Program-made: the position numbers and the translations under genes
IMG/VR virus record: IMGVR_UViG_3300031566_000011
Location: 17,625-81,624 of that record
Source of the DNA: a virus
Lineage: Duplodnaviria > Heunggongvirae > Uroviricota > Caudoviricetes
Length of the DNA: 64,000 nt
Direction: 5' to 3' (one strand)
The notes under the pieces: model-generated
What the model saw: the letters and a program-made list of their open reading frames with translations, nothing else
What the model was told of the DNA's origin: nothing
The model's database searches: none
Part shown: positions 4,613 to 49,966 of the stretch, piece after piece
Layout: each line of letters begins with the position of its first letter
How positions within the stretch are numbered: position 1 is the stretch's first letter

Positions 4613-6183
4613 GTGGAACACAAATAGCGAGTAATCCAGTAGTTAATTTTGCTAATAACGGGGCATCAGGAGTTACTGCATCCCCTATGGTAAAAGCATT
4701 GATCGTAAATCAAAAGTCGGCATCAGGCACAGCCATTAGTGGTAAGCTTTATTCAAATATTAGTAATGATACTAATATTTATGAAGGATTATTTGGAAAG
4801 AATTCTATAATGAGTGCATGTATTAAATCATTCAAGGCTATTAATAAATATAGTCAACTTGATGTTATTTCATTGGATGACAATGTTGGTGGTGTTCAGG
4901 CAACTGGAAATGTAACATTCACTGGAACAACAGCAGGTGTTGCTGGAACAATTTATGTTACTATTGGTTCTAAAAAAAAGCATAAATATACATTAAATGT
5001 AGCATTTGGAGCTACACCAGATCAAATTGGAGATGCGTTAGCTGCTGCAATATTAGCAGATACTTATGCTCCTTTTACTAGTGTAAATACTAGTGGTGAT
5101 GTTGCTATAACATTTCTACACAAAGGAACAATAGGAAATAATATTTCTGTCCATGTTGAAGGTTCTGTAACTGGAATAACATTAGCGACAACTGCTTTTG
5201 CAGGTGGTGCTACTGACCCAGTTTTAACAACTTTATTCGATAATATAGATAGCATTAAATATAAAGCAATTATATATCCTTGCACTTATGATTTGGATGT
5301 TTTGGAAACATTAGTAGAAAGTAGAGTTGATTATGACAATATAGATTTAGCTGGTGTTGGATTTATTTCAAAAACAGATTCTAAGGCTAATTTAGTAACA
5401 TTGGGAGAGGCATATAATTCAAGAGCTTTAATTATTCATGGAAATGAAGTAAATAACAATACATTATTTAAAGGGTCAACTATTAAAGAATTTGATGATG
5501 TTATTATTACAAATTTTGTTGCTATTGATTTATTAAGATTGACACCAAATGCAGTTATTGGAAGTGGATATATAGCTAGTGTTGAATTAAATGATAATAT
5601 AGGTGGTCCTTCTTTGGCTTCATATCCATATTACAATACACCGTTATTTGATCTACCAGTTATTGAGGATGGTGATGGATTTACAAGAAGTGAAGTTAAA
5701 GAATTAAAAGATGCTGGTGTTTTTGTAATGTCTAATAATGTTGCAGGAACTACTCTTATAACAGATCAAGTAGTTACAACATACAAAACTAATGCTCTTG
5801 GTATTGTAGATGACAGTTTTAAATATTTAAATTATATAAGAACATACAACGAAGCAACAGCATATCAATTTACACGACTTAAAGCTGAATTAAATACAAG
5901 ATTAACACAAGGAACATCTGTTGCTGGGTATTCAGATATAAATGAAGTAGGAATAAAGGCTATAATGAAAGATTCTTATATAGAGCTTAGCGGTGGAACA
6001 TATTACTTATGTCCTAGAGGCATTAGTAGTGAAACTGGAAAAGATATAATTAAAGAATATGAAAATAATTTAAGTATTAATATATCTTACACTACAGGCA
6101 TAATAAGTATTTCACAAATATTGCCAATATTGGTTCAAGCAAGAATAATTAATGTTATATCTAATTTAACATTTAACATTTAG
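4609..6183 (+). CDS. tail sheath protein
   Basis: 524 aa. Position immediately before a small tube-like gene, chaperone and tape measure. Size and Gly/Thr/Val-rich composition typical of sheath proteins. Confidence 0.45.
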   Translation: MSGTQIASNPVVNFANNGASGVTASPMVKALIVNQKSASGTAISGKLYSNISNDTNIYEGLFGKNSIMSACIKSFKAINKYSQLDVISLDDNVGGVQATGNVTFTGTTAGVAGTIYVTIGSKKKHKYTLNVAFGATPDQIGDALAAAILADTYAPFTSVNTSGDVAITFLHKGTIGNNISVHVEGSVTGITLATTAFAGGATDPVLTTLFDNIDSIKYKAIIYPCTYDLDVLETLVESRVDYDNIDLAGVGFISKTDSKANLVTLGEAYNSRALIIHGNEVNNNTLFKGSTIKEFDDVIITNFVAIDLLRLTPNAVIGSGYIASVELNDNIGGPSLASYPYYNTPLFDLPVIEDGDGFTRSEVKELKDAGVFVMSNNVAGTTLITDQVVTTYKTNALGIVDDSFKYLNYIRTYNEATAYQFTRLKAELNTRLTQGTSVAGYSDINEVGIKAIMKDSYIELSGGTYYLCPRGISSETGKDIIKEYENNLSINISYTTGIISISQILPILVQARIINVISNLTFNI

Positions 6184-6215
6184 TTTTAGATTATAGTAAA
6201 TATAGGGAGTAAATA

Positions 6216-6605
6216 ATGTCAGATAAAAAAACAAAAGTCCTGAGGAAACTAGAAGTGAATGGATTGTTGGTTTCCCCAGTTCCTAATAGTTTCAATTACA
6301 CATCAAGTATAGCACCAACAACTGTTAAAAAGTATGCAGCAGGAATTGGAGTAGATGCTATTGTAGAAGAAAGAAATATTGAAGAAGGGGTTGGTGAGTT
6401 AAATTTTAAAGTATTTTCTACTATATCTAATGAAAATACTATTGTTGCAGCACAGAATAATGCCTCAGATAACACTGTCCAAGCTACTTTTGAAACAGGT
6501 GATGTGAAGATTTTTAAAGATGTTGCGATTGAAGGTAAACCATCGTTTGGGGAAGGAACAGAAAATTCTGTTGATATTAGTTGTAGATTTGGAAGCGTAA
6601 ACTAA
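6216..6605 (+). CDS. tail tube protein
   Basis: 129-aa ORF between sheath and chaperone, as in the P2/Mu FI-FII-E-T order. Confidence 0.4.
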   Translation: MSDKKTKVLRKLEVNGLLVSPVPNSFNYTSSIAPTTVKKYAAGIGVDAIVEERNIEEGVGELNFKVFSTISNENTIVAAQNNASDNTVQATFETGDVKIFKDVAIEGKPSFGEGTENSVDISCRFGSVN

Positions 6606-6626
6606 AAAATAAAAGGAAAATAAAAT

Positions 6627-7103
6627 ATGTTTGAATATAATTTAATAAAACCAGTAGAAAATTTAGGAATAGAACAAAAGTCAATATTTATAGTAGAACC
6701 AAATTCTTTAATGGAAGAAGCATTAGATGTATTACAAAGTGTATATGCAAAGGGTGTTTTTTCTGTAAGTAAGGGGTCAAGTAATAATTCTAATGAAAAA
6801 TCTGATCCTGAGAAAGCGTTTAATGACTATCAAGATGAGCAAGAACGTTTAAAAAATATAAGCGATAAACAATTGGAATTTGAAAATAAAGAAAAAATTA
6901 ATGGTTTAAGTTTAATATTTAGTGTCTGTGGAGAACTTAAAAAAGCAAAAGATGCCTTTAAGTCAATATTAACAAATCAGCAATGCACATTTTATGATAG
7001 AAATAAACAACAAAAAATAAACCAAGGGTTTGTATCTGACTTGGCTCCAAAAGACTTCAACAATTTAATGTATGGATATTTTAACTATTTTTTGGAACTA
7101 TAG
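6627..7103 (+). CDS. tail assembly chaperone (gpE/G-like), 0-frame product
   Basis: 158-aa acidic protein immediately upstream of the tape measure. Ends 6 codons after a T_TTT_TTG slippery heptamer. Confidence 0.45.
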   Translation: MFEYNLIKPVENLGIEQKSIFIVEPNSLMEEALDVLQSVYAKGVFSVSKGSSNNSNEKSDPEKAFNDYQDEQERLKNISDKQLEFENKEKINGLSLIFSVCGELKKAKDAFKSILTNQQCTFYDRNKQQKINQGFVSDLAPKDFNNLMYGYFNYFLEL

Positions 7104-7282
7104 AATTATATTTCAAAGTAAAGGATGATTTATTAAATCATAAACTACATTTAATACATAATTTTGAGGGCGGAATTTCATTAGAATATTTAAATAAAAT
7201 ATCTTGGGTAGAATTGTTTGAGTTGTTTGATGTTTCTAGAAATGTTGTAGAAGAGATAAATAGAAAAATAAAAGATAACTAG
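6627..7282 (+). CDS. tail assembly chaperone -1 frameshift extension product (gpE+E'/GT-like)
   Basis: The -1 frame is open from 7085 to the TAG at 7280-7282 (LFFGTIELYFKVKDD…EEINRKIKDN). It begins at the slippery site T_TTT_TTG 7088-7094 and fills the otherwise gene-less 230-nt gap before the tape measure gene. Confidence 0.35.
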
Positions 7283-27469: not shown

Positions 27470-28138
27470 TTAATTATTTTTTAAAAAACATAATCTATCC
27501 AATCCAATAGAAATTTCAAAATTATTTATATTATTTTCAAAGTCATTCCTTAAAGACATACTACACACTTCTAAACCATTTATTATAATATCAGTAGTTT
27601 CAAGTGAATATTTAGGTAATCTGTCTGATAATTCCATTTCTACTTTATATTTACTAAATTCATTTTCATAAAAACTAAATATAAACTCTTTTAATATGTT
27701 TGGATAATCCGCTTTTGTTGTATTAGAGTATAATAATTGAAATTCTAATTGATAAAATTCTTTTAATCTTATGTTTTTAAAAGTTTTATCTTGTTCGTTT
27801 CTGAAAGATTTTCCAGATTGCCAAACACATAATGGAAGTTTAGCTTCATAATGTTTTAATAAATATTTCGCAATATTATAGCTCCCCTTTGTTGTTTCTG
27901 GTCTTAAACAAAAATCCTCATTAGTTTCAAATATATAATTTTTTTCTAAAAAATATTCATTATCTATACTTTCCTTATCTTGCAATAATGACGTTTCTAT
28001 TTGCCTAAAGTCAATTGCTTTATTTAATCTAAATAATTTATTTTTCAATTCAATTGATATATTTTTTATAAGATATTCTCTATTGAAAATATCTTTTTCA
28101 TCATAAAAAACAAATCCATTATTATTTATATTTTGCAT
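27470..28138 (-). CDS. class II aminoacyl-tRNA synthetase-like mini-protein (GlyRS-like catalytic core fragment)
   Basis: CLRPETTKG…KLPLCVWQSGKSFRNEQDKTFKNIRLKEFYQLEFQ matches GlyRS (alpha2-type) motif 2 (LRPETAQG…KLPF…IGNSFRNE…IRVREFTMAEIE). ISIGLDRL resembles motif 3. Only 222 aa and no anticodon-binding domain. Confidence 0.45.
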   Translation of the reverse strand: MQNINNNGFVFYDEKDIFNREYLIKNISIELKNKLFRLNKAIDFRQIETSLLQDKESIDNEYFLEKNYIFETNEDFCLRPETTKGSYNIAKYLLKHYEAKLPLCVWQSGKSFRNEQDKTFKNIRLKEFYQLEFQLLYSNTTKADYPNILKEFIFSFYENEFSKYKVEMELSDRLPKYSLETTDIIINGLEVCSMSLRNDFENNINNFEISIGLDRLCFLKNN

Positions 28139-28158: not shown

Positions 28159-31100
28159 TTATTGATAATACTCTATTCCTTCAACATCCCCAGAATTACA
28201 ATTTTCACAGTAATCTATCAATCCTTTTACCATAGTGCCACATTTAGAACACACACTAAATTCTGGTGATATAACAATTTGAGCAGTATTTGTATTATCC
28301 CATGTTTTTTTAACTAAATTATATATTGATTCTTTTGAAGGAAGATTTTCCCCAACAAAAGCATGTATAATTGCACCTGCTGCAATTAATGAGTGAAATT
28401 TACTTTGTTTTTCTATTCTTTCTGTTATCGGCATATCAATTGATGCATTAAAATGTATACTGTTGGTGTAATAATATGTATCAAGATCATCCCCCTTTAT
28501 ATAATTTTTACTTATTGGATATTCTTTTAAATCAACCTTAGCAAGTCTCCTAGATGTAGATTCTGCTGGCGATTCTTCTATTACACATTTTAAGCCAAAC
28601 TTTTCTGTAAATTTTTTTGTCTTTAAAAACATATTTGTAATAATTTTAATTCCAATTTTAAATGTTTCATCATCTTCATGTAATTCTTTTTCAGTTAAGA
28701 ACTGGACACATTCATTTAATCCTATTACACCAAATATGTAAGATGCAGAATTAAGATCAATATATGGAAACCCATCGCATGATGGTTGTCCTACATTATA
28801 CATAGGTGATCCTTTTGTGTCAAACATTTTTTGAATAAATTTTCTTTTTTGTATATGTGCATTCATTGCAATATCCATAGAAATTAAAATATCATCTATT
28901 GCTTCTTGTATATTTCCTTTTCCTGCTCTATATGCAGCCTGTGCAAGATTTATTGTTACATTTTGAAACCCACAATATCTCATATGTTCTGGATTTGAAA
29001 TCATAAGCATATCTTGTTTATTCTTCTCATCTAATGTCGTGCGGAGTCTACAGCAGGAAGATAATGTAATAGCATCTCTATCAAAAATAAAATATATAGA
29101 ACCATTTTTACTAGTAACTTCACAAGCAAAATTTAATAATTCTTTTTCATTTTCACGTTCAAAACTATTTTTTGTTATATGTAGGTCTATTTTTGGAAAT
29201 TCGAACAATCTTCCATTTTTATCACCAATCATTACTACTTCCATAATAGCTTTTGCGAACATTTGCGATTCTTTTTCATATTCAAAATATGTTTTCCCAG
29301 TGTATTCTCCTCCTTGTCCAATAGCCTGAACACAGCTCAAACTTTCGGGAATACCAGTATGTAGATTAAAATCAGTGAATAATGTATTATGTGCAAATAA
29401 TCCACACCCTAATAAAAAATTTTCATGTTCCCTAACAGAAATATCATAAACATATTCATCCTGTTCAGTGCTTTTATTTATACTAATTACTTCTAACGGT
29501 AATAATTTAATAGATTTTTCTATGTTGGTTATTAGTGTCTCCATTAAATTAATTTGGTTTTTTATTATTGTTTTTGCCATTTCAAATACTTTATCATTTT
29601 CTATATCTCTCATACAAAAGTTTCTATTAAATGTGTTTTGTAATGTATTTTTTGAAATATTATCAAATAAGTATAAATCCTCAAATACTTCCTTAATATT
29701 CTGTTTATTTATTTTAGTTGAATAAGATAAATATTCTTTAATAGCTTTTTTTGTTTTATCATATATTTCGTTTAATCTATTTTCTTTTATTTTATAACAT
29801 TTTAATGATATTTTACTTTTATAAACATTTTTTATATCTATTTTTAAATGATTATAATTATATTTTAATTGATTATAATTTTTTGTATTATTTATTTTAT
29901 GAGAATTAAAATTATTTAATAATTCATTTTTTTTATCATTATGCCTTTTTAGTAAAAAATCTATTTTATCAAAATTATCTATTCCTATAGTTAATCTATA
30001 TTGTTTTTTACTCTTTTTTACTAATTTATTATTTATAAATATATTTTTTTTAGGATAAATAATATCTTGCCTAACATTACATCCTATTTTTGAAAATGCT
30101 AAATGTAAATGCTTGGCTAAAATATTAGATACAGTAGAGCAACCAATCCTATTTTTACAAACCCATCCATCCCCTGATAAATATCCAGAAATAAAACTTT
30201 TAACAATATGTTTATTATTAAATAATATACAAGATGGGATTTGTTTTTCATAAACTATATTTCCAAACAAATTACAAAACAATATTCTTGCAAGTTTGTT
30301 TGATAATGTAACTTTATTTTTTTTTATAGATGCTTTTTTACCGAAAACATTGAAGAATAAATTTGAGATTATGGTTTTCATCTTTATACCTTCGAATATG
30401 TGTATTTCTATTGAATTGTCACATTCCCCACCATCTGCAACATACATGCCAGCCAATAATGCAAAATCATCATCAATATCTATAAACCTTTTTATTATAC
30501 CAATTTTATGTTTTTTATACCAAATATGAGTATTTGTATATTCAATTTCATCAATATCTTCTTTTGGAACATAATTCAATAAATCTATTTTTGGTATTTT
30601 TTTATTAATATCAAAATTAATATGACTTAAAAAATGTTCAGGCATAGAATTTGGATTGGTTTCATTTATTTTGCTATTTTTATCAATACTAAATAAACTG
30701 TGGTCTTCAGTAACACTTGTCTTTATTCCATTAGCACAAGTAATGTCTACTAATTTATTTTTTCTTTCATGTTTAACTGCCCCATAAATATCAGATAAAA
30801 CACATTCACCAGTTTCTTTGTTTAGACTAATCGCTTTATACTTATTTATATCATTCTTATTATCAAATTTATTATAAAATTCTTCTATGGTTGGAATTTC
30901 TATTTTTTGCGTAATTGTATTGTAAACATAAATAGTTTCACATCCTTTAATTGATTGCCCACCTCTAGAAAAGGCATTCTGTGACAAACTAAATACTAAA
31001 TATTGTGCTTCTTTTAACATTTCTTCATATGTCATACCAACTAAATATGGGGCATAAGATATGTTCACATATGATAACCCTAGTGCTCCTGCATAATATG

Positions 31101-33036
31101 CCTGCATAGATGCCAAGAATGTGTTTATATGACCTGTTAACGTATGTGCATGTTTTGCAGGTGAGGATTTTGTAGAAATATTATGTAAATCTAATCCATA
31201 TTTTTTTATATACTCAATAGAGTGAGCTCCACAATTATGTAATAACAACCCATTACTAGCAAACAATCCAGTTTCTGTTGTTATGTCATAAACAAAGTCT
31301 CTTTTATAATCAACTTCTTTAATATTTCTAACTAAATATGTGTCATGAAAAACTTTATTATCACAGAAAATAAAACTATTATTATCTATATGTTTTGATA
31401 TTTTATAAGACTTAGAAAATAGATGTTTTTTATCTTCTGATATATTAAAAGTTAATCTATATAAAGGATAATTAGCTTTAATTTTTGAATTTTTATAAAA
31501 CCCAACATAATTCAAGTTTGATTTTATTCCATTGTTTGTTAATATTTCTTGCATTTGTGATAATAAAACTTTTGAAGTTAATCTAATATTAATATTTGTA
31601 GAACTATTTTTTATAGTATTGCCTTTAAAGTTTTTAAGAGTTCCTTCTGCATCTATAACTCCATTAATTAAAGCAAATTGTTCATTTAATGATAACTCAA
31701 AAACATTGTTTGGAAATTGTCTTTGATATTGATAATATCCTAATGTTAATGTTTTTAATAAAAAATCTCTAAAACTTTTTTCATATATTCTAAAATATTT
31801 TTTCTCTTCATTATATCCAAATGAAATTTCTTTATCTATAAAGTATTGTTTAATGTTTTTTATATTTTCAATCCCAGTAACTGTTATATCATTATGGTTA
31901 AAACTTCCATCTCCTATAAACATTCCTAAAAAATAGCAAAAATCTTCGTCAAATTTTATTGTTTTGCCTTTAATTAAAACTTCTTTTTGTGTTTTAAAGT
32001 TATTTGTGTTAAAATTTTGCTCTATTAAAAAGTTATTTATTTTTACATCTTTTGCTTTTAATTCTATTATATTCGTATCAAATGTTTCAAGTTGGCTTTT
32101 AAATTGTCTATTGCAGTCTTTACATTTATAAGCCCTAGTATTTTTTATAATATTTTTATTACCATTTCTGATAACATTATTTGATTTACAATATTTACAT
32201 TCTGGCATATTAAAAGTATTTTTTTTAACTAACATAGAATGGTTTTCTGTCAATGTAACACTTTTTCCATTTAATGTTTGAATACTTAACATTCTTTTAT
32301 TGTTGTTTTTTATTTTTGTTACAAAATTAAGTGGTATAAATTTATTTTTCTCATAAATTTGGTATCCAATAGTTTTTTTTCTAAATATTCCTTCCTCAAC
32401 TTCTAACTCTTCTTTATCAATAGAATCGTATAAATTTTCCATAGAATATGATTTTATATTATTATTAATATCTTTTATAATAACGTGTTCATTATCTGGA
32501 AAACAATAAATTTTTTGGGGTGTTCCTAAATCATGTAAATGTATTCTACCTTTCAAATGTGCTTCTTTAACTTCTTTTGAAAATACATTATTTAAACCAT
32601 ATTGTTTTAATATTGTTTCTGATATTGCCATATTTACAGCTTCTGGATTATTCGCTACTATATTGCTATTTTCGTTGCTTTTATTAAACATTAAGTCTTC
32701 TATGGAATGTTTAGGCATCAAGTATGAGTCTTGTTGTTCTAACTGCTTTAAAAGTCCCATATCTAACAATTCATTATTAACAAGTTCTCTTATTAAACTT
32801 GTAGATAATGTTTTTATTCCAGAATTTATAATTTTCTCCTGTACTTTATGAGAAATTTCTATTGCAATATCTTTTTTTATATTGCTTTCTTCTCTTAAAA
32901 CTTCGACTATTTTATTGCTATCAAAACCTGTTAATTCATAATCAACTTCATCTTCTACTAATAAAACATTATCCGTACTATCTGCTTTATTATTTTTTTT
33001 CTTTTTTACTTTAATTTCTTTTATTTTATCTTCCAT
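28159..33036 (-). CDS. nrdD: anaerobic ribonucleoside-triphosphate reductase NrdD interrupted by two inteins
   Basis: N-terminal ATP-cone. NrdD signature HLKGRIHLHDLG. C-terminal Zn-ribbon CSKC…CENC. Extein sum is about 682 aa. Two insertions begin with Cys and end with HN followed by C/T. Confidence 0.85.
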   Translation of the reverse strand: MEDKIKEIKVKKKKNNKADSTDNVLLVEDEVDYELTGFDSNKIVEVLREESNIKKDIAIEISHKVQEKIINSGIKTLSTSLIRELVNNELLDMGLLKQLEQQDSYLMPKHSIEDLMFNKSNENSNIVANNPEAVNMAISETILKQYGLNNVFSKEVKEAHLKGRIHLHDLGTPQKIYCFPDNEHVIIKDINNNIKSYSMENLYDSIDKEELEVEEGIFRKKTIGYQIYEKNKFIPLNFVTKIKNNNKRMLSIQTLNGKSVTLTENHSMLVKKNTFNMPECKYCKSNNVIRNGNKNIIKNTRAYKCKDCNRQFKSQLETFDTNIIELKAKDVKINNFLIEQNFNTNNFKTQKEVLIKGKTIKFDEDFCYFLGMFIGDGSFNHNDITVTGIENIKNIKQYFIDKEISFGYNEEKKYFRIYEKSFRDFLLKTLTLGYYQYQRQFPNNVFELSLNEQFALINGVIDAEGTLKNFKGNTIKNSSTNINIRLTSKVLLSQMQEILTNNGIKSNLNYVGFYKNSKIKANYPLYRLTFNISEDKKHLFSKSYKISKHIDNNSFIFCDNKVFHDTYLVRNIKEVDYKRDFVYDITTETGLFASNGLLLHNCGAHSIEYIKKYGLDLHNISTKSSPAKHAHTLTGHINTFLASMQAYYAGALGLSYVNISYAPYLVGMTYEEMLKEAQYLVFSLSQNAFSRGGQSIKGCETIYVYNTITQKIEIPTIEEFYNKFDNKNDINKYKAISLNKETGECVLSDIYGAVKHERKNKLVDITCANGIKTSVTEDHSLFSIDKNSKINETNPNSMPEHFLSHINFDINKKIPKIDLLNYVPKEDIDEIEYTNTHIWYKKHKIGIIKRFIDIDDDFALLAGMYVADGGECDNSIEIHIFEGIKMKTIISNLFFNVFGKKASIKKNKVTLSNKLARILFCNLFGNIVYEKQIPSCILFNNKHIVKSFISGYLSGDGWVCKNRIGCSTVSNILAKHLHLAFSKIGCNVRQDIIYPKKNIFINNKLVKKSKKQYRLTIGIDNFDKIDFLLKRHNDKKNELLNNFNSHKINNTKNYNQLKYNYNHLKIDIKNVYKSKISLKCYKIKENRLNEIYDKTKKAIKEYLSYSTKINKQNIKEVFEDLYLFDNISKNTLQNTFNRNFCMRDIENDKVFEMAKTIIKNQINLMETLITNIEKSIKLLPLEVISINKSTEQDEYVYDISVREHENFLLGCGLFAHNTLFTDFNLHTGIPESLSCVQAIGQGGEYTGKTYFEYEKESQMFAKAIMEVVMIGDKNGRLFEFPKIDLHITKNSFERENEKELLNFACEVTSKNGSIYFIFDRDAITLSSCCRLRTTLDEKNKQDMLMISNPEHMRYCGFQNVTINLAQAAYRAGKGNIQEAIDDILISMDIAMNAHIQKRKFIQKMFDTKGSPMYNVGQPSCDGFPYIDLNSASYIFGVIGLNECVQFLTEKELHEDDETFKIGIKIITNMFLKTKKFTEKFGLKCVIEESPAESTSRRLAKVDLKEYPISKNYIKGDDLDTYYYTNSIHFNASIDMPITERIEKQSKFHSLIAAGAIIHAFVGENLPSKESIYNLVKKTWDNTNTAQIVISPEFSVCSKCGTMVKGLIDYCENCNSGDVEGIEYYQ
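29386..30942 (-). mobile_element. intein 2 in NrdD (519 aa) with LAGLIDADG homing endonuclease
   Basis: Begins …GGQSIKG|CETIYVY and ends …GLFAHN|TLFTDF. LAGLIDADG motifs FALLAGMYVADGGE and KSFISGYLSGDGWV. Confidence 0.7.
31234..32505 (-). mobile_element. intein 1 in NrdD (424 aa) with LAGLIDADG homing endonuclease and C2C2 zinc finger
   Basis: Begins HDLGTPQKIY|CFPDNEHV and ends …GLLLHN|CGAHS. Internal LAGLIDADG motifs FCYFLGMFIGDGSF and FALINGVIDAEGTL. Zn finger CKYCKS…CKDCNRQF. Confidence 0.7.
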
Positions 33037-44274: not shown

Positions 44275-44302
44275 TTGACAAATAAATTATAATATATATA
44301 AT
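44275..44302 (+). promoter_or_regulatory. sigma70-like promoter upstream of tRNA-like RNA cluster
   Basis: TTGACA (44275-80) - 16 nt - TATAAT (44297-302). Confidence 0.4.
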
Positions 44303-44358
44303 TGTATATAGATGTTGTTTTATATATTTTCCAAATCATTGGCGTATAATAGAGATAC

Positions 44359-44407
44359 TTCGTCTGATAAACGACAGGTCGTAGGTTCAAATCCTACTAG
44401 ACCACCA
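44359..44407 (+). tRNA. tRNA-Ile(GAU)-like 3' half (positions 27-76)
   Basis: TTCGT-CTGATAA-ACGAC anticodon arm (loop CUGAUAA, anticodon GAU), variable AGGTC, T arm GTAGG-TTCAAAT-CCTAC, TAGACCA + CCA. Confidence 0.5.
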
Positions 44408-44434
44408 AAGTCTATAGCTCAGGTTGGTAGAGCG
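44408..44434 (+). tRNA. tRNA-Ile-like 5' half (positions 1-26)
   Basis: AAGTCTA-TA-GCTC-AGGTTGGTA-GAGC-G. D arm almost identical to the bacterial tRNA-Ile D arm. GTCTA pairs with the TAGAC of the preceding piece. Confidence 0.45.
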
Positions 44435-44530
44435 GTAAAGAGTTCTCTATTATATTGCTATATGGGTTGGAATTTTTTAAAATTAAAAGATAGATAGTGT
44501 ATAATACAAACACTTTAAAAATAAATATAT

Positions 44531-44685
44531 TGTGCAGTGGAGAAATTAGTAGCCTCTTATTGATTCGGTGTTAAGTTGCAACTAACTTGCAAGATAGAGT
44601 AACCTCTGGAACGATGAAGCTGAATACCTCTATGCCGAAGGTAAGATTCAAAGTCAGCGAGTGGGTGCAATTCCCACCTGCACAT
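44531..44685 (+). ncRNA. tRNA-like RNA A (about 155 nt) with about 90-nt insert in the anticodon region
   Basis: 7-bp closing stem TGTGCAG/CTGCACA, D-arm-like GAGA-AATTAGTAG-CCTC, T arm GTGGG-TGCAATT-CCCAC. No contiguous anticodon hairpin. Internal hairpin TTGCAA-CTAAC-TTGCAA. Confidence 0.35.
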
Positions 44686-44712
44686 AATATTTATAATAAC
44701 TCGCCAAGAAAA

Positions 44713-46070
44713 CCGCATGTTCTTTAGACGTGCGGATGAATTGGCGTATTTCTTTCAATTTTTGATGTATTTAAGCACTTAAAAACATTTTTTGCATAAA
44801 ATAACAAAACAACAAGGAAGTCAAGATGTTTGTTAGGTATAATTACCGATTAAAACCAACGCCAGAGCAAGACCAACTGCTACGTCAAGTGGCAGGTAGT
44901 CAACGTTGGCTTTGGAATCACTTTCTTGCACAAGAAATAAAGCAATATAAAAAAGATAAATCGTTTAATTTCTACAATAAAAATGCAGCATCTTTACCAA
45001 GTCTTAAAAAGGATTATGAATGGTTAAAAGATGGACCATCTCAATCCTTACAGCAGACTTTGAAGGATTTGAATAATGCATTGAGTAATTCATTCAAAAA
45101 ACCAGAGCGTGGCTTCCCTAAATTTAAGAAGAAGAAAGAATTTAATGAGACCTTTCGTGTTGTTCAAACCCCTGAGAAATGGAAAGGCAAATACGGACAT
45201 ATCTATATAGATATACCTAAAATTGGTAAAGTGAAATGGAACTACCATCGTTCTTTACCAAATACCTTTAGTACTGCTACTGTATTGCTTGATGGAGATA
45301 AGTGGTATATTAGCATAGTTATAGATGTAGAAACAAAACAGCCTGTTGATATAAAAAATATAAATCAAGTAGTAGGAATTGATTTAAATAGCAAAATGTT
45401 GGTTGTTACATCAGATGGAGAACTAATAGATAACCCTAAGTTCTTCAAACAACAAAAACAACGCATTGCCAAAAAGCAACGCCAAATAAGCAAGAAAACA
45501 AAAGGTTCAAATAGATACAAAAGAAAACAAAAAGAGCTATATAATGCTCATAAAAACGCAAGACATCAAAGAACCAATCATTTACATCAAGTCTCAAATC
45601 AGATAACCAATGATTATGATTTGATTTGCACAGAAGACCTAAACGTAAAAGGAATTCAACAATTTAATGGCACTATAGTTAATGATGCAGGATGGTCCAG
45701 ACTGTTAGAAATGATAAAATATAAATCTTTGTTGAAGGGTAAGCATATGGTACAAATACACCGTTTTGCACCCTCAAGTAAGACTTGCAATCATTGTGGA
45801 ACAATGAAAACCATTAAGTTATCAGAAAGAACATATAGTTGTGAAAATTGTGGAACTACTTTAGATAGGGATATAAATGCCGCACTAAATATACGTGATT
45901 GGGGTTTGTTTGATTTTAATACTCCTGGGACGGGAGAAATTTACGGACGTGGAGATACCTCTGTTGGGGTAGATAAGTCAGGACACTTACCTACTAGATA
46001 CGTATCATTGAATCGTCAAAAGTTCCAAAGCAATATGTCTTTGGAAGCCAAGTGATCTTTAGTCGCTTGG
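44713..46070 (+). mobile_element. IS200/IS605-family tnpB-only element (IS1341-like)
   Basis: LE hairpin CCGCATG-TTCTTTAGA-CGTGCGG (44713-35) and RE hairpin CCAAGTGA-TCTTTAG-TCGCTTGG (46048-70) share the loop motif TCTTTAG. They enclose tnpB. Confidence 0.45.
44826..46055 (+). CDS. tnpB: TnpB (OrfB) RNA-guided nuclease family protein
   Basis: MFVRYNYRLKPTPEQ… N-terminus. RuvC-like core. C-terminal Zn finger CNHCG…CENCG. 409 aa, typical IS605 OrfB. Confidence 0.8.
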   Translation: MFVRYNYRLKPTPEQDQLLRQVAGSQRWLWNHFLAQEIKQYKKDKSFNFYNKNAASLPSLKKDYEWLKDGPSQSLQQTLKDLNNALSNSFKKPERGFPKFKKKKEFNETFRVVQTPEKWKGKYGHIYIDIPKIGKVKWNYHRSLPNTFSTATVLLDGDKWYISIVIDVETKQPVDIKNINQVVGIDLNSKMLVVTSDGELIDNPKFFKQQKQRIAKKQRQISKKTKGSNRYKRKQKELYNAHKNARHQRTNHLHQVSNQITNDYDLICTEDLNVKGIQQFNGTIVNDAGWSRLLEMIKYKSLLKGKHMVQIHRFAPSSKTCNHCGTMKTIKLSERTYSCENCGTTLDRDINAALNIRDWGLFDFNTPGTGEIYGRGDTSVGVDKSGHLPTRYVSLNRQKFQSNMSLEAK

Positions 46071-46108
46071 TAGTTCACATGCACTTGAAATATAACTAAA
46101 GGAATATT

Positions 46109-46369
46109 ATGAAAAAAAATAAAAAAGAAATATTAAAAAAAATAACAAAAACAGAAGTATTTGAAAATATCAAGAAGGCTATTTTTCTTGGTGTTATTAT
46201 TAGCTATATTTTATATTATACAGGAAATAAGAATTCATTAGATATAAAGAGTATTATTAAATTACAGGCATTTATTTATTGTTTAGATGTATTTATAGAA
46301 TATAATATAAAATATATCATTGCGATATATTCAACAATAAAAGAAAGTTTATATATTGATAAAGAATAG
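46109..46369 (+). CDS. hypothetical small membrane protein
   Basis: 86 aa with TM segment AIFLGVIISYILYYTG. Confidence 0.25.
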   Translation: MKKNKKEILKKITKTEVFENIKKAIFLGVIISYILYYTGNKNSLDIKSIIKLQAFIYCLDVFIEYNIKYIIAIYSTIKESLYIDKE

Positions 46370-46409
46370 GATTGTAGCTCAATGGTAGAGCATTACACTG
46401 TTAATGTGG
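46368..46409 (+). tRNA. tRNA-Asn(GUU) 5' fragment (acceptor-5', D arm, anticodon arm; no T arm or 3' end)
   Basis: AGGATTG-TA-GCTC-AATGGTA-GAGC-A-TTACA-CTGTTAA-TGTGG. Canonical through the anticodon arm, then runs into the methylase fragment ORF. Confidence 0.4.
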
Positions 46410-46742
46410 TGGTTGAAAACTAACAAAGATGGTTCTCCCTTCTTTGGAATAGGATATTATGCCAAGTCAAACCAAGAAGTTTGTTTATTAGCCGTAAAAG
46501 GGAAGGGGCATTCTTTAGTCAAATCAAATAGCGTGTCAAGTTTTGTTAGTACAAACAGAACTAAACATAGCGAAAAGCCACAAATATTCAGGGATAAAAT
46601 TGTTGAGCTGTTCGGTGATTTACCACGAATAGAACTTTTTGCCAGACAAAAGACAGAAGGTTGGGATGCATTAGGATTTGATATTGATGGAAAAGACATA
46701 AAAGAAAGCATACAACTACTTGCACAAAATAAATCTTTGTGA
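46404..46742 (+). pseudogene. MT-A70-family adenine methyltransferase, C-terminal fragment
   Basis: …GIGYYAKSNQEVCLLAVKGKG…KHSEKPQIFRDKIVELFGDLPRIELFARQKTEGWDALG matches the MT-A70 C-terminal pattern. The DPPW catalytic N-terminal half is absent. Confidence 0.45.
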
Positions 46743-48775: not shown

Positions 48776-49966
48776 ATGCTCAATTCAACAAAAGTAAAAA
48801 TAATAGTTGTAGTTACGGCTATTTTTCTAGCTATTTTTGCAGGCAAAATTTTCGAAACAAATAATTCAGGTTACTATCTAATCAAACAAGCAGCTTTAAC
48901 TGGAAAGGTATCTGCTATCAATAGGACAGGAGTAATTTTACAGGCATTTGGTAGTATTTTCAAATATCAGTTATCAGGGATGTATCATTTTTCATCAAGC
49001 AATCTAGATGGTGGAAGCGGACAAGAATCAGACCCAATTACTGTGAGATTTAATGATGGTGGAACAGCTGATGTTTCAGGGTCTATTAAATTTAAGTTGT
49101 CATCAAATAATGATAATCAAAAAGAATTACATGAAGATTTTAAAAGTTTTAGGGCTGTTCGTGTTGATTTAATTAGACAAGTAGTTGCTGAAGCATTAAT
49201 GCAAACTGCTTCTATAATGAAAGCAGAAGAATCGTATAGTTCAAGACGTGCTGAATTTACGGCATTAGTTGAAGACCAAATTAAATATGGTATTTATGAT
49301 ACTGAATTAATAGAAAAAATTACAAAGGATGCGGAAGGTAATGATTTCATTAAAAGAAGTGTAAAAATAATATATGACAAAACTGGAAAGCCTATTATTA
49401 GAAAACCTTCACCATTTCTTAGATATAAAATTGAAATTCTTCAATTTGTAATAAAAAATCTAGACTTTGATGCTACTATAGATAACTTGATTGCTAAAAA
49501 GAAAGAATCTGAACAACAAAGAGTTGTAGCAAGAGCAAATGCGGAAAAAGCAAAACAAGATGCTATCACAGCTAAAGAAGAAGGAAATGCTGCGATTGCG
49601 GTTGCAAAAGCAAAGAAAGAAGTAGAGAAAATTGAAGCGGTTACAAATGCTATGAAAGAATATGAGGTTGCTAAATATAACACATTAAAAGCTAAAGAAG
49701 AAGCGAATGCAAGATTGGTTAAACAAAGAGCAGAAGCAACAGCTAATAGACTTCTTGTGCAAGCAGGATTAACCCCTAAAGAGAGAGCGGAGTTTGCAAG
49801 GGATACTGCTATAGGTGTTGCAAAAGCAACAGCATCTTTCCAACCAGCACCAAATGCACAAATTGTTGTATTAGGTGGAAATGGTAAGGGCGGAGCTATT
49901 AGTCCATTCGAAATGCTAAACTTAAAAGCTATGAATGATATGCTTAAAAGTAAAAAGGTTTCATAA
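48776..49966 (+). CDS. SPFH/band-7 (flotillin-like) membrane protein
   Basis: N-terminal TM segment, SPFH core (…RAVRVDLIRQVVAEALMQTA…), Ala/Lys/Glu coiled-coil repeats. 396 aa. Higher-GC codon usage. Confidence 0.55.
   Translation: MLNSTKVKIIVVVTAIFLAIFAGKIFETNNSGYYLIKQAALTGKVSAINRTGVILQAFGSIFKYQLSGMYHFSSSNLDGGSGQESDPITVRFNDGGTADVSGSIKFKLSSNNDNQKELHEDFKSFRAVRVDLIRQVVAEALMQTASIMKAEESYSSRRAEFTALVEDQIKYGIYDTELIEKITKDAEGNDFIKRSVKIIYDKTGKPIIRKPSPFLRYKIEILQFVIKNLDFDATIDNLIAKKKESEQQRVVARANAEKAKQDAITAKEEGNAAIAVAKAKKEVEKIEAVTNAMKEYEVAKYNTLKAKEEANARLVKQRAEATANRLLVQAGLTPKERAEFARDTAIGVAKATASFQPAPNAQIVVLGGNGKGGAISPFEMLNLKAMNDMLKSKKVS

Follow-up and report, generated by a model that had tools for sequence, protein, structure and literature searches.

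A permuted tRNA-like locus in a phage genome as a probable YrlA-family tRNA mimic

A phage locus in which the 3' part of a tRNA-Ile-like sequence precedes its 5' part, read in an earlier note as a circularly permuted tRNA-Ile(GAU) gene, encodes a YrlA-type, Y RNA-like non-coding RNA (44336-44471, plus strand) that is very probably a tRNA mimic and not a tRNA precursor. The membership of this RNA in the YrlA family, its secondary structure, its promoter and the lack of a Ro60 gene in the phage sequence were established in this work. The window, that is, the whole 64-kb stretch of DNA that was analysed, belongs to a tailed phage or prophage, as indicated by genes for a tail sheath, a Mu-like baseplate, a tape measure and replication. 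The circularly permuted tRNA topology proposed for the unit, with 3'-side modules followed by 5'-side modules and with paired ends, was confirmed. This permuted-tRNA-like architecture is already known as a defining feature of YrlA RNAs and is not, as had been supposed, absent from bacteria and phages, since YrlA RNAs adjoin Ro60 genes in 254 bacteria and 22 phages (Chen et al. 2014, PMC4201824). In that study the defining elements are given as a 5' motif and a YUAY element, then a variable V stem-loop, the T arm, an acceptor-like stem-loop that is not conserved, the D arm and, from the pairing of both ends, a long stem. The structure of the YrlA tRNA-like domain has been solved, and YrlA RNAs were described as resembling circularly permuted tRNAs whose acceptor stems are closed (Wang et al. 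2018, bioRxiv 10.1101/312249).

Results

Organization of the locus

Read from the sequence, the elements of the unit all sit where the earlier note had placed them. The sigma70-like promoter reported upstream proved to be a perfect match, with TTGACA (44275-44280), a 16-nt spacer and TATAAT (44297-44302) on the plus strand agreeing with the sigma-70 consensus at 12 of 12 positions. Transcription is predicted to start at about 44309-44312 on the same strand, and the promoter is identical in related contigs lacking the TnpB element described below. The 5' strand of the closing helix (44340-44355, plus strand) consists of UGGCG (44340-44344), whose GGCG is the homologue of the proposed Ro60-contact motif, followed by UAUAAUAGAGA (44345-44355). 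Next come a UAC (YUAY-like) element and a small V hairpin (44356-44375, plus strand), both delimited from the family alignment and covariation. The UAC lies within AUAC at 44355-44358 and is invariant across the family in a 52-sequence alignment; the hairpin (44359-44375) reads UUCGU-CUGAUAA-ACGAC, with the loop CUGAUAA at 44364-44370.

The remaining tRNA-like elements, all on the plus strand, were also found as had been described. A variable-loop mimic, AGGUC (44376-44380), leads into a T arm, GUAGG-UUCAAAU-CCUAC (44381-44397), and then into a closed acceptor-like (AS) hairpin, UAGAC-CACCAAA-GUCUA (44398-44414), which is supported by covariation and in which TAGAC (44398-44402) pairs with GTCTA (44410-44414) across the loop CACCAAA. 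A U8-A9 mimic (44415-44416) and a D arm, GCUC-AGGUUGGUA-GAGC (44417-44433), complete this part of the unit (44415-44433), with the D stem and UAGCUCAG being invariant in 52 of 52 aligned sequences. The 3' side of the RNA (44434-44460, plus strand) contains G44435, U44436, a linker AAAGAGU, UCUCUAUUAUA (44444-44454), a bulged U44455 and UGCUA (44456-44460), the latter pairing with UGGCG at 44340-44344. The inverted repeat formed by TATAATAGAGA (44345-44355) and TCTCTATTATA (44444-44454) is 100% complementary over its 11 nt, as had been reported, and the closing helix amounts to these 11 perfect base pairs plus five more pairs and one bulged U. A likely factor-independent 3' end (44467-44478, plus strand) may be placed from the sequence, with UUGGAA (44467-44472) able to pair with UUCCAA (44329-44334) and a six-T run following at 44473-44478. 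This 3' end was not called by a simple terminator scan, for which the loop of the helix is too large.

Assignment to the YrlA family

The Rfam model for YrlA (RF02553) aligned over its full length (model positions 1-114) to 44339-44464 with 39.5 bits and E = 7e-7 under permissive thresholds, and was the sole structured Rfam match across the whole unit. This score lies below the gathering score of the model (69 bits). Phage members located next to Ro60 genes (L143, L166 and L184) reached only 38.9-52.7 bits on the same model, so that a sub-threshold score is typical of this clade and not a sign of non-membership. An Rfam tRNA match at 44340-44405 (30.6 bits) was rejected as an artefact of the T arm, being a partial alignment without the D arm.

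Relatives were collected by two degenerate pattern scans of IMG/VR, each yielding at least 120 matches. Among the matches listed, the first scan contained ordinary tandem tRNAs mixed with YrlA-like units, and the second, anchored on a UACUUC...GGUC...T-loop block, consisted nearly entirely of YrlA-like units. With the window sequence left out, 51 phage sequences (47 of them Ro60-adjacent) served to build a covariance model, R2. The model matched 44336-44471 from model position 1 to 134 with 85.6 bits and E ~1e-21, a score in the middle of the range spanned by the family matches (55-118 bits, more than 120 matches). In the 52-sequence MAFFT alignment, the window RNA was in register with its relatives throughout. 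A megablast search of the locus against GenBank phages gave no match, and scanning GTDB genomes with the RNA pattern recovered five YrlA arrays in alphaproteobacterial metagenome-assembled genomes and no prophage copy.

The flanking repeat, taken up in the earlier note as an argument for function, has to be read in two parts. The repeat does pair in the minimum free energy fold of 44336-44466 (-40.6 kcal/mol, z = -3.9), in which the enclosing helix forms, and its duplex has z = -7.4 compared with a median of -2.5 in relatives (among the matches listed). The 11-bp inverted repeat by itself is within chance at 27% G+C, as the window holds 25 inverted pairs of 11-mers at most 120 nt apart, a number for which random sequences from a first-order Markov model give 18.7 +/- 5.2. 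The whole unit, in contrast, is far beyond chance, judged by its score against the independent family model.

Covariation across relatives

In a plain MAFFT alignment including the window, 82.6% of the cells of the proposed structure were paired, against 61.2% in shuffles, and the covariation score was 0.59, compared with 0.18 in shuffles and at most 0.15 in slid controls having the partners shifted by 1-3 columns. The AS helix was 95.9% paired, with covariation at seven of the seven modelled pairs; the T stem was 98.8% paired in the family, with three covarying pairs; and the inner closing stem covaried at six of six positions. A further helix, of two pairs, is formed between the dinucleotide preceding the AGGUC variable loop and the second and third bases beyond the D stem (A44374-U44436 and C44375-G44435 in the window), and was 99% paired with four pair types per position. 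The outer two pairs of the anticodon stem drawn in the earlier note, with which this helix competes, display no two-sided change because their 5' partners are an invariant U. The small hairpin supported by the family is therefore one of three pairs (C44361-G44373, G44362-C44372 and U44363-A44371), and the anticodon arm can no longer be called perfect, the outermost pair being a U.C mismatch that leaves 4 bp, of which the inner three alone are supported in relatives.

That the unit merely juxtaposes two tRNA remnants, i.e. the 3' part of one tRNA and the 5' part of the next, left without function by a deletion in a tandem tRNA array, is most improbable in light of this conservation. A descent of YrlA RNAs from dimeric tRNA transcripts has been proposed, and the family probably did arise in this way; some relatives do lie inside phage tRNA arrays, such as the RNA at 746-893 of L170, flanked by tRNAs ending at 743 and starting at 895, and the window has another tRNA fragment at 46368-46415. 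However, the family model matches along its whole length, taking in the 5' motif and the closing helix, the latter foreign to tRNAs, and the AS hairpin, the closing stem and the two-pair helix are all maintained by covariation among more than 50 diverged sequences. The unit also has its own perfect-consensus promoter, and the RNA is conserved in all related contigs. The earlier view of a functional, promoter-driven unit in preference to two remnants is upheld by the model match, the covariation, the predicted promoter and the conservation.

Absence of the hallmarks of a permuted tRNA gene

A genuine circularly permuted tRNA-Ile(GAU) gene would require the enclosing helix to be cut, the ends to be ligated into a circle and the acceptor loop to be opened by RNase P and RNase Z, yielding a working tRNA. 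Although the order of the modules and the 26/27 break point are indeed those of a permuted tRNA, ARAGORN, one of the programs named in the earlier note, called no tRNA or tmRNA anywhere in the window. The acceptor obtained on rejoining has just 5 bp and two mismatches, a defect that had been conceded at the outset, compared with 7 bp in a canonical tRNA, and the 4-bp anticodon stem with its U.C mismatch likewise departs from the canonical 5 bp and has outer pairs that do not covary, the rival helix to the flank of the D stem being the one that is almost always paired. CUGAUAA is a perfect tRNA-Ile anticodon loop whose sole polymorphism (C/U at the first loop position) is compatible with a tRNA, but the anticodon is not conserved in relatives: among the matches listed, the V loop has 7 nt in 81 of 123 relatives and ranges from 0 to 17 nt, and 26 different middle triplets occur among the 7-nt loops, the commonest loop of the 123 being CUGUUAA. 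The acceptor-like hairpins of the relatives are closed, variable in length and in loop, the latter often of tetraloop size, and without a conserved CCA, which occurs in the loop of 11 of the 123 (again among the matches listed). The loop triplets, the CCA counts and the covariation are at odds with a gene for one tRNA species, and the designation as a tRNA-Ile gene was abandoned.

The minimum free energy fold has a continuous enclosing helix with single-nucleotide bulges and no bulge-helix-bulge motif, and neither a splicing endonuclease nor an RNA ligase, which had been suggested as a co-encoded function to look for, was found among the window ORFs scanned. Most relatives, among the matches listed, lie beside Ro60 and not in translation-related contexts. 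The literature allows processing of some YrlA RNAs towards tRNAs, with the M. smegmatis YrlA being cut by RNase P; at the window locus there is no sign of processing to a tRNA. Permuted tRNA genes, known from Cyanidioschyzon merolae and other algae and from Thermofilum pendens, share with the locus the placement of 3' modules upstream of 5' modules. The locus differs from them in that a bulge-helix-bulge and a canonical acceptor of 7 bp are lacking, the ORFs scanned include no splicing endonuclease, and the anticodon is not conserved in relatives. A permuted tRNA-Ile gene is accordingly a highly unlikely reading of the locus, and maturation of the window RNA into a usable tRNA is much less likely than the Ro60-independent decoy role discussed below.

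Linkage to Ro60

Binding to Ro60 (Rsr) and tRNA-like modification by TruB and DusA are criteria by which a YrlA RNA is recognized. In each of the 76 relatives whose fetched flank contains a Ro60 ORF, this ORF and the RNA share a strand, with a median gap of 153 bp (among the matches listed), and these ORFs carry the TROVE and vWA_Ro60 domains of Pfam. Ro60 was located within 3 kb in 29 of the 35 strong matches with at least 3 kb on both sides (among the matches listed); L070, L089 and L195, all AT-rich and with good flanks and simple closing stems, are among the exceptions. In the 64-kb window, no Ro60 or TROVE protein was detected by Pfam searches of all ORFs of at least 300 aa and many smaller ones, by our own Ro60 HMM applied to all ORFs of at least 120 aa, by hhalign of Ro60 against two large unannotated ORFs or by a PHROGs search. 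The neighbours shared among Ro60-less loci were limited to GIY-YIG homing endonucleases and a metallophosphatase at variable distance, with no consistent partner.

The two strands of the stem linked to Ro60 in relatives score differently in the window RNA. Scored with position weight matrices, its 5' block falls at the 44th percentile of Ro60-linked relatives, whereas its 3' block falls at the 6th percentile and is devoid of the conserved UCGCYUGUUCC. Where relatives have an internal loop between the 5' and 3' blocks, the window RNA has a helix with a single bulged U. In loci that clearly lack Ro60, both blocks score low. The 5' motif of the window RNA reads GGCGUAU and the phage-clade consensus GGCGUAG, both differing from the published motif GNCGAAN0-1G. 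The strand bearing the 5' motif is the one mainly contacted by Ro60 (Chen et al. 2014, PMC4201824).

Genomic context

Six nearly identical contigs were recovered by exact protein look-up, and in these the RNA is present and nearly invariant whether or not TnpB is there. The RNA varies at one position only, 44364 in the loop of the hairpin, with T replacing C in L124, L126 and L127. The TnpB element (IS200/IS605-type, about 44700-46078 in the window) is absent from four of the six contigs. A second tRNA-like RNA, at 44511-44700 and 40 nt downstream of the first, is kept in all related contigs. Given that both RNAs are retained in contigs lacking TnpB, both belong to the phage backbone. The second RNA matched neither Rfam nor the family model and had no homologue in sequence at the fetched loci; the 16-mer of its T arm retrieved nothing but tRNAs and two-piece tmRNAs from other phages. 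Its layout is nearer to that of Deinococcus radiodurans Yrn1.

A gene for an SPFH/Band-7 protein (48776-49966) lies 1.1-4.3 kb downstream of the RNA. Band-7-associated tRNA-like RNA (b7a-tRNA) systems were described by Burroughs and Aravind (2016), as cited in bioRxiv 10.1101/312249. The window resembles these systems in its downstream Band-7 gene, YrlA being reported as occasionally located beside Band-7 proteins, and differs from them in that no RtcB or other RNA ligase is found near the window RNA. A tblastn-type retrieval of Band-7 relatives in IMG/VR returned none. Band-7 was examined as a conserved partner and rejected, three homologues from the protein database (55-60% identical) having neither a YrlA-like RNA nor a tRNA within 6 kb.

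Discussion

The window RNA has the element order of the YrlA RNAs of S. Typhimurium, M. smegmatis and mycobacteriophage, namely a 5' stem strand, a YUAY-like element, a V hairpin, an AGGUC-type variable loop, a T arm, an AS hairpin, UA, a D arm and a 3' strand. It also shares with them the conserved T-loop, D-loop, U8 and C48 positions needed for a tRNA elbow, the occurrence in phages and the full-length covariance-model match. It departs from them in the lack of a Ro60 gene within 4 kb or anywhere in the 64 kb, in its divergent 5' motif, in its missing 3' strand motif with an almost continuous closing helix, and in a short acceptor-like stem (5 bp). Deinococcus radiodurans Yrn1 and the metazoan Y RNAs are likewise modular, with a long stem of the two ends carrying the Ro60 site, and Yrn1 also has a T-arm-like hairpin; however, Yrn1 is an incomplete tRNA mimic with a normal D-then-T order, unlike the main RNA of the window with its permuted order.

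We propose that the locus gives rise to a stable non-coding RNA of about 135-170 nt belonging to the YrlA subfamily of bacterial and phage Y RNAs, which would be transcribed from its own consensus sigma-70 promoter. The RNA is predicted to fold into a tRNA-shaped module made up of the T arm, the closed AS hairpin, the U-A and a D arm whose loop could dock on the T loop, together with the two-pair helix acting as the top of an anticodon stem, the small side hairpin and the long helix of the two ends. Cutting and rejoining into a tRNA would not take part in this scheme, and because the acceptor-like stem stays closed the RNA could not be aminoacylated. Its working surface may instead be the tRNA elbow, which in characterized YrlA RNAs is recognized by tRNA-binding enzymes. 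In most relatives, the closing helix would tether the ring protein Ro60 (Rsr) encoded next door, with the elbow binding an effector that recognizes tRNA.

Lacking a Ro60 gene, the phage would either exploit the Rsr of its host through the retained 5' GGCG strand or use the RNA without Ro60, and we regard the two as close to even, with host Rsr slightly favoured. The retained 5' strand lends slight support to host Rsr, while the lost 3' motif and the absent gene support a Ro60-independent role. In the latter reading, which we entertain tentatively, a YrlA-derived RNA would now act in free form, its tRNA-like shape serving as a decoy or sponge for some tRNA-binding factor of the host (a modification enzyme, say, or a nuclease that targets tRNAs), perhaps in conjunction with the second RNA. 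Besides the missing gene, the loss of the 3' motif and the closed internal loop are compatible with this proposal, and so are the AT-rich loci L070, L089 and L195, likewise without Ro60 and with simple closing stems; in addition, the conserved elbow is expected to bind a tRNA-binding effector (Wang et al., bioRxiv 10.1101/312249). The 5' GGCG strand kept at a typical score speaks against independence from Ro60, as do the lack of a candidate partner consistently encoded nearby and the failure of the Band-7 neighbour to co-occur with such RNAs at three homologous loci. Slightly less likely is that the window RNA belongs, with L070, L089 and L195, to a minority of orphan phage mimics derived from YrlA that have lost Ro60, and that it acts alone, or perhaps alongside the RNA at 44511-44700, to divert a host factor recognizing tRNA, for example a tRNA-targeting defence nuclease, in the manner of a decoy or sponge.

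With the locus assigned very probably to the YrlA-type tRNA mimics, the main value of this analysis is one of correction: it is not the first permuted tRNA gene of a bacterium or phage. What remains unusual is its Ro60-less context, the missing 3' motif and the second tRNA-like RNA next door. The YrlA-like family is abundant in phages, judging by the size of both IMG/VR scans, and the gathering threshold of Rfam misses this clade. The strongly covarying two-pair helix clarifies how the V hairpin branches in those family members that bear one. The minority of phage copies without Ro60, the window RNA included, are natural test cases for a tRNA-like domain acting alone.

A second candidate structured RNA in the window

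A second structured RNA candidate lies at 44511-44700 on the plus strand, starting 40 nt 3' of the YrlA-like RNA and preceded by a promoter-like element (TTAAAA-17 nt-TATAAT) with its last base at 44505. Its 5' and 3' ends pair perfectly as a 7-bp acceptor-like stem (UGUGCAG/CUGCACA), the 5' strand of which is followed by a D-like arm, by a branched insertion, roughly 100 nt long, in place of the anticodon arm and, 3' of the insertion, by a true T arm (GUGGG-UGCAAUU-CCCAC). The folding energy was -49.9 kcal/mol (z = -3.5). The candidate matched neither Rfam nor ARAGORN models, and a search for a homologue among the fetched loci returned none. This arrangement recalls either Yrn1-type Y RNAs or a tRNA domain like that of tmRNA. 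The unusual T-arm 16-mer GGGUGCAAUUCCCACC is common to the candidate and to five AT-rich IMG/VR phage contigs (L245, L263, L264, L275 and L280), all of which carry tmRNA genes of the two-piece (permuted) type, labelled tmRNA* in the ARAGORN output.

Immediately 3' of the candidate is inserted a TnpB-only IS200/IS605-type element (44700-46078, plus strand), with a left-end hairpin CCGCATG...CGTGCGG at about 44712-44735 and an ORF at 44826-46055 encoding a 409-aa protein with HTH_OrfB_IS605, OrfB_IS605 and Cas12f1-like TNB domains. Four near-identical relatives of the window contig (L121, L124, L126 and L127) are devoid of this element and have a different 40-bp stretch at the insertion site; the RNA candidate is present in these relatives.

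Other tRNA-related sequences and genes

Further downstream, a fragment at 46368-46445 (plus strand; Rfam tRNA, 30.1 bits) resembles the 5' two-thirds of tRNA-Asn(GUU), with the acceptor 5' strand, a D arm (GCUC-AAUGGUA-GAGC) and an anticodon arm with loop CUGUUAA, and lacks a proper T arm. An MT-A70 methylase ORF (46404-46742) begins within this fragment, and its Pfam domain was matched in the C-terminal part only.

The minus strand encodes a 222-aa protein (27470-28138) whose matches to tRNA-synt_2b and tRNA-synt_2d are confined to the class II aminoacyl-tRNA synthetase catalytic core; it is a stand-alone aminoacyl-tRNA synthetase-like paralogue. The phage that carries it has tRNA mimics and no tRNA genes. 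Also on this strand, intein and LAGLIDADG sequences break up the 1625-aa ORF of an anaerobic ribonucleotide reductase (NrdD; 28159-33036). Five genes or gene fragments for DNA methyltransferases also occur in the window, together with three metallophosphatases.

Genomic settings of YrlA-like RNAs

In contig L078, the YrlA-like RNA (7002-7135) lies 50 nt 3' of a plus-strand gene (5558-6949) for a DUF2828 + DUF7788 protein, with no recognisable Ro60 in its place; this protein may be a divergent Ro60-like partner. Five loci from Alphaproteobacteria MAGs (L239-L243) carry YrlA-like RNAs in tandem arrays of two to five copies, with graded scores against the phage-derived covariance model.

Dense tRNA gene arrays enclose a YrlA-like RNA in some phages, such as L170 (22-1760) and L198 (147-2913). 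The L170 RNA (746-893) is flanked by a tRNA ending at 743 and another beginning at 895, and tRNA-processing enzymes would cut both of its ends. The location of a YrlA-like RNA within a tRNA array is in keeping with an origin from dimeric tRNA transcripts.
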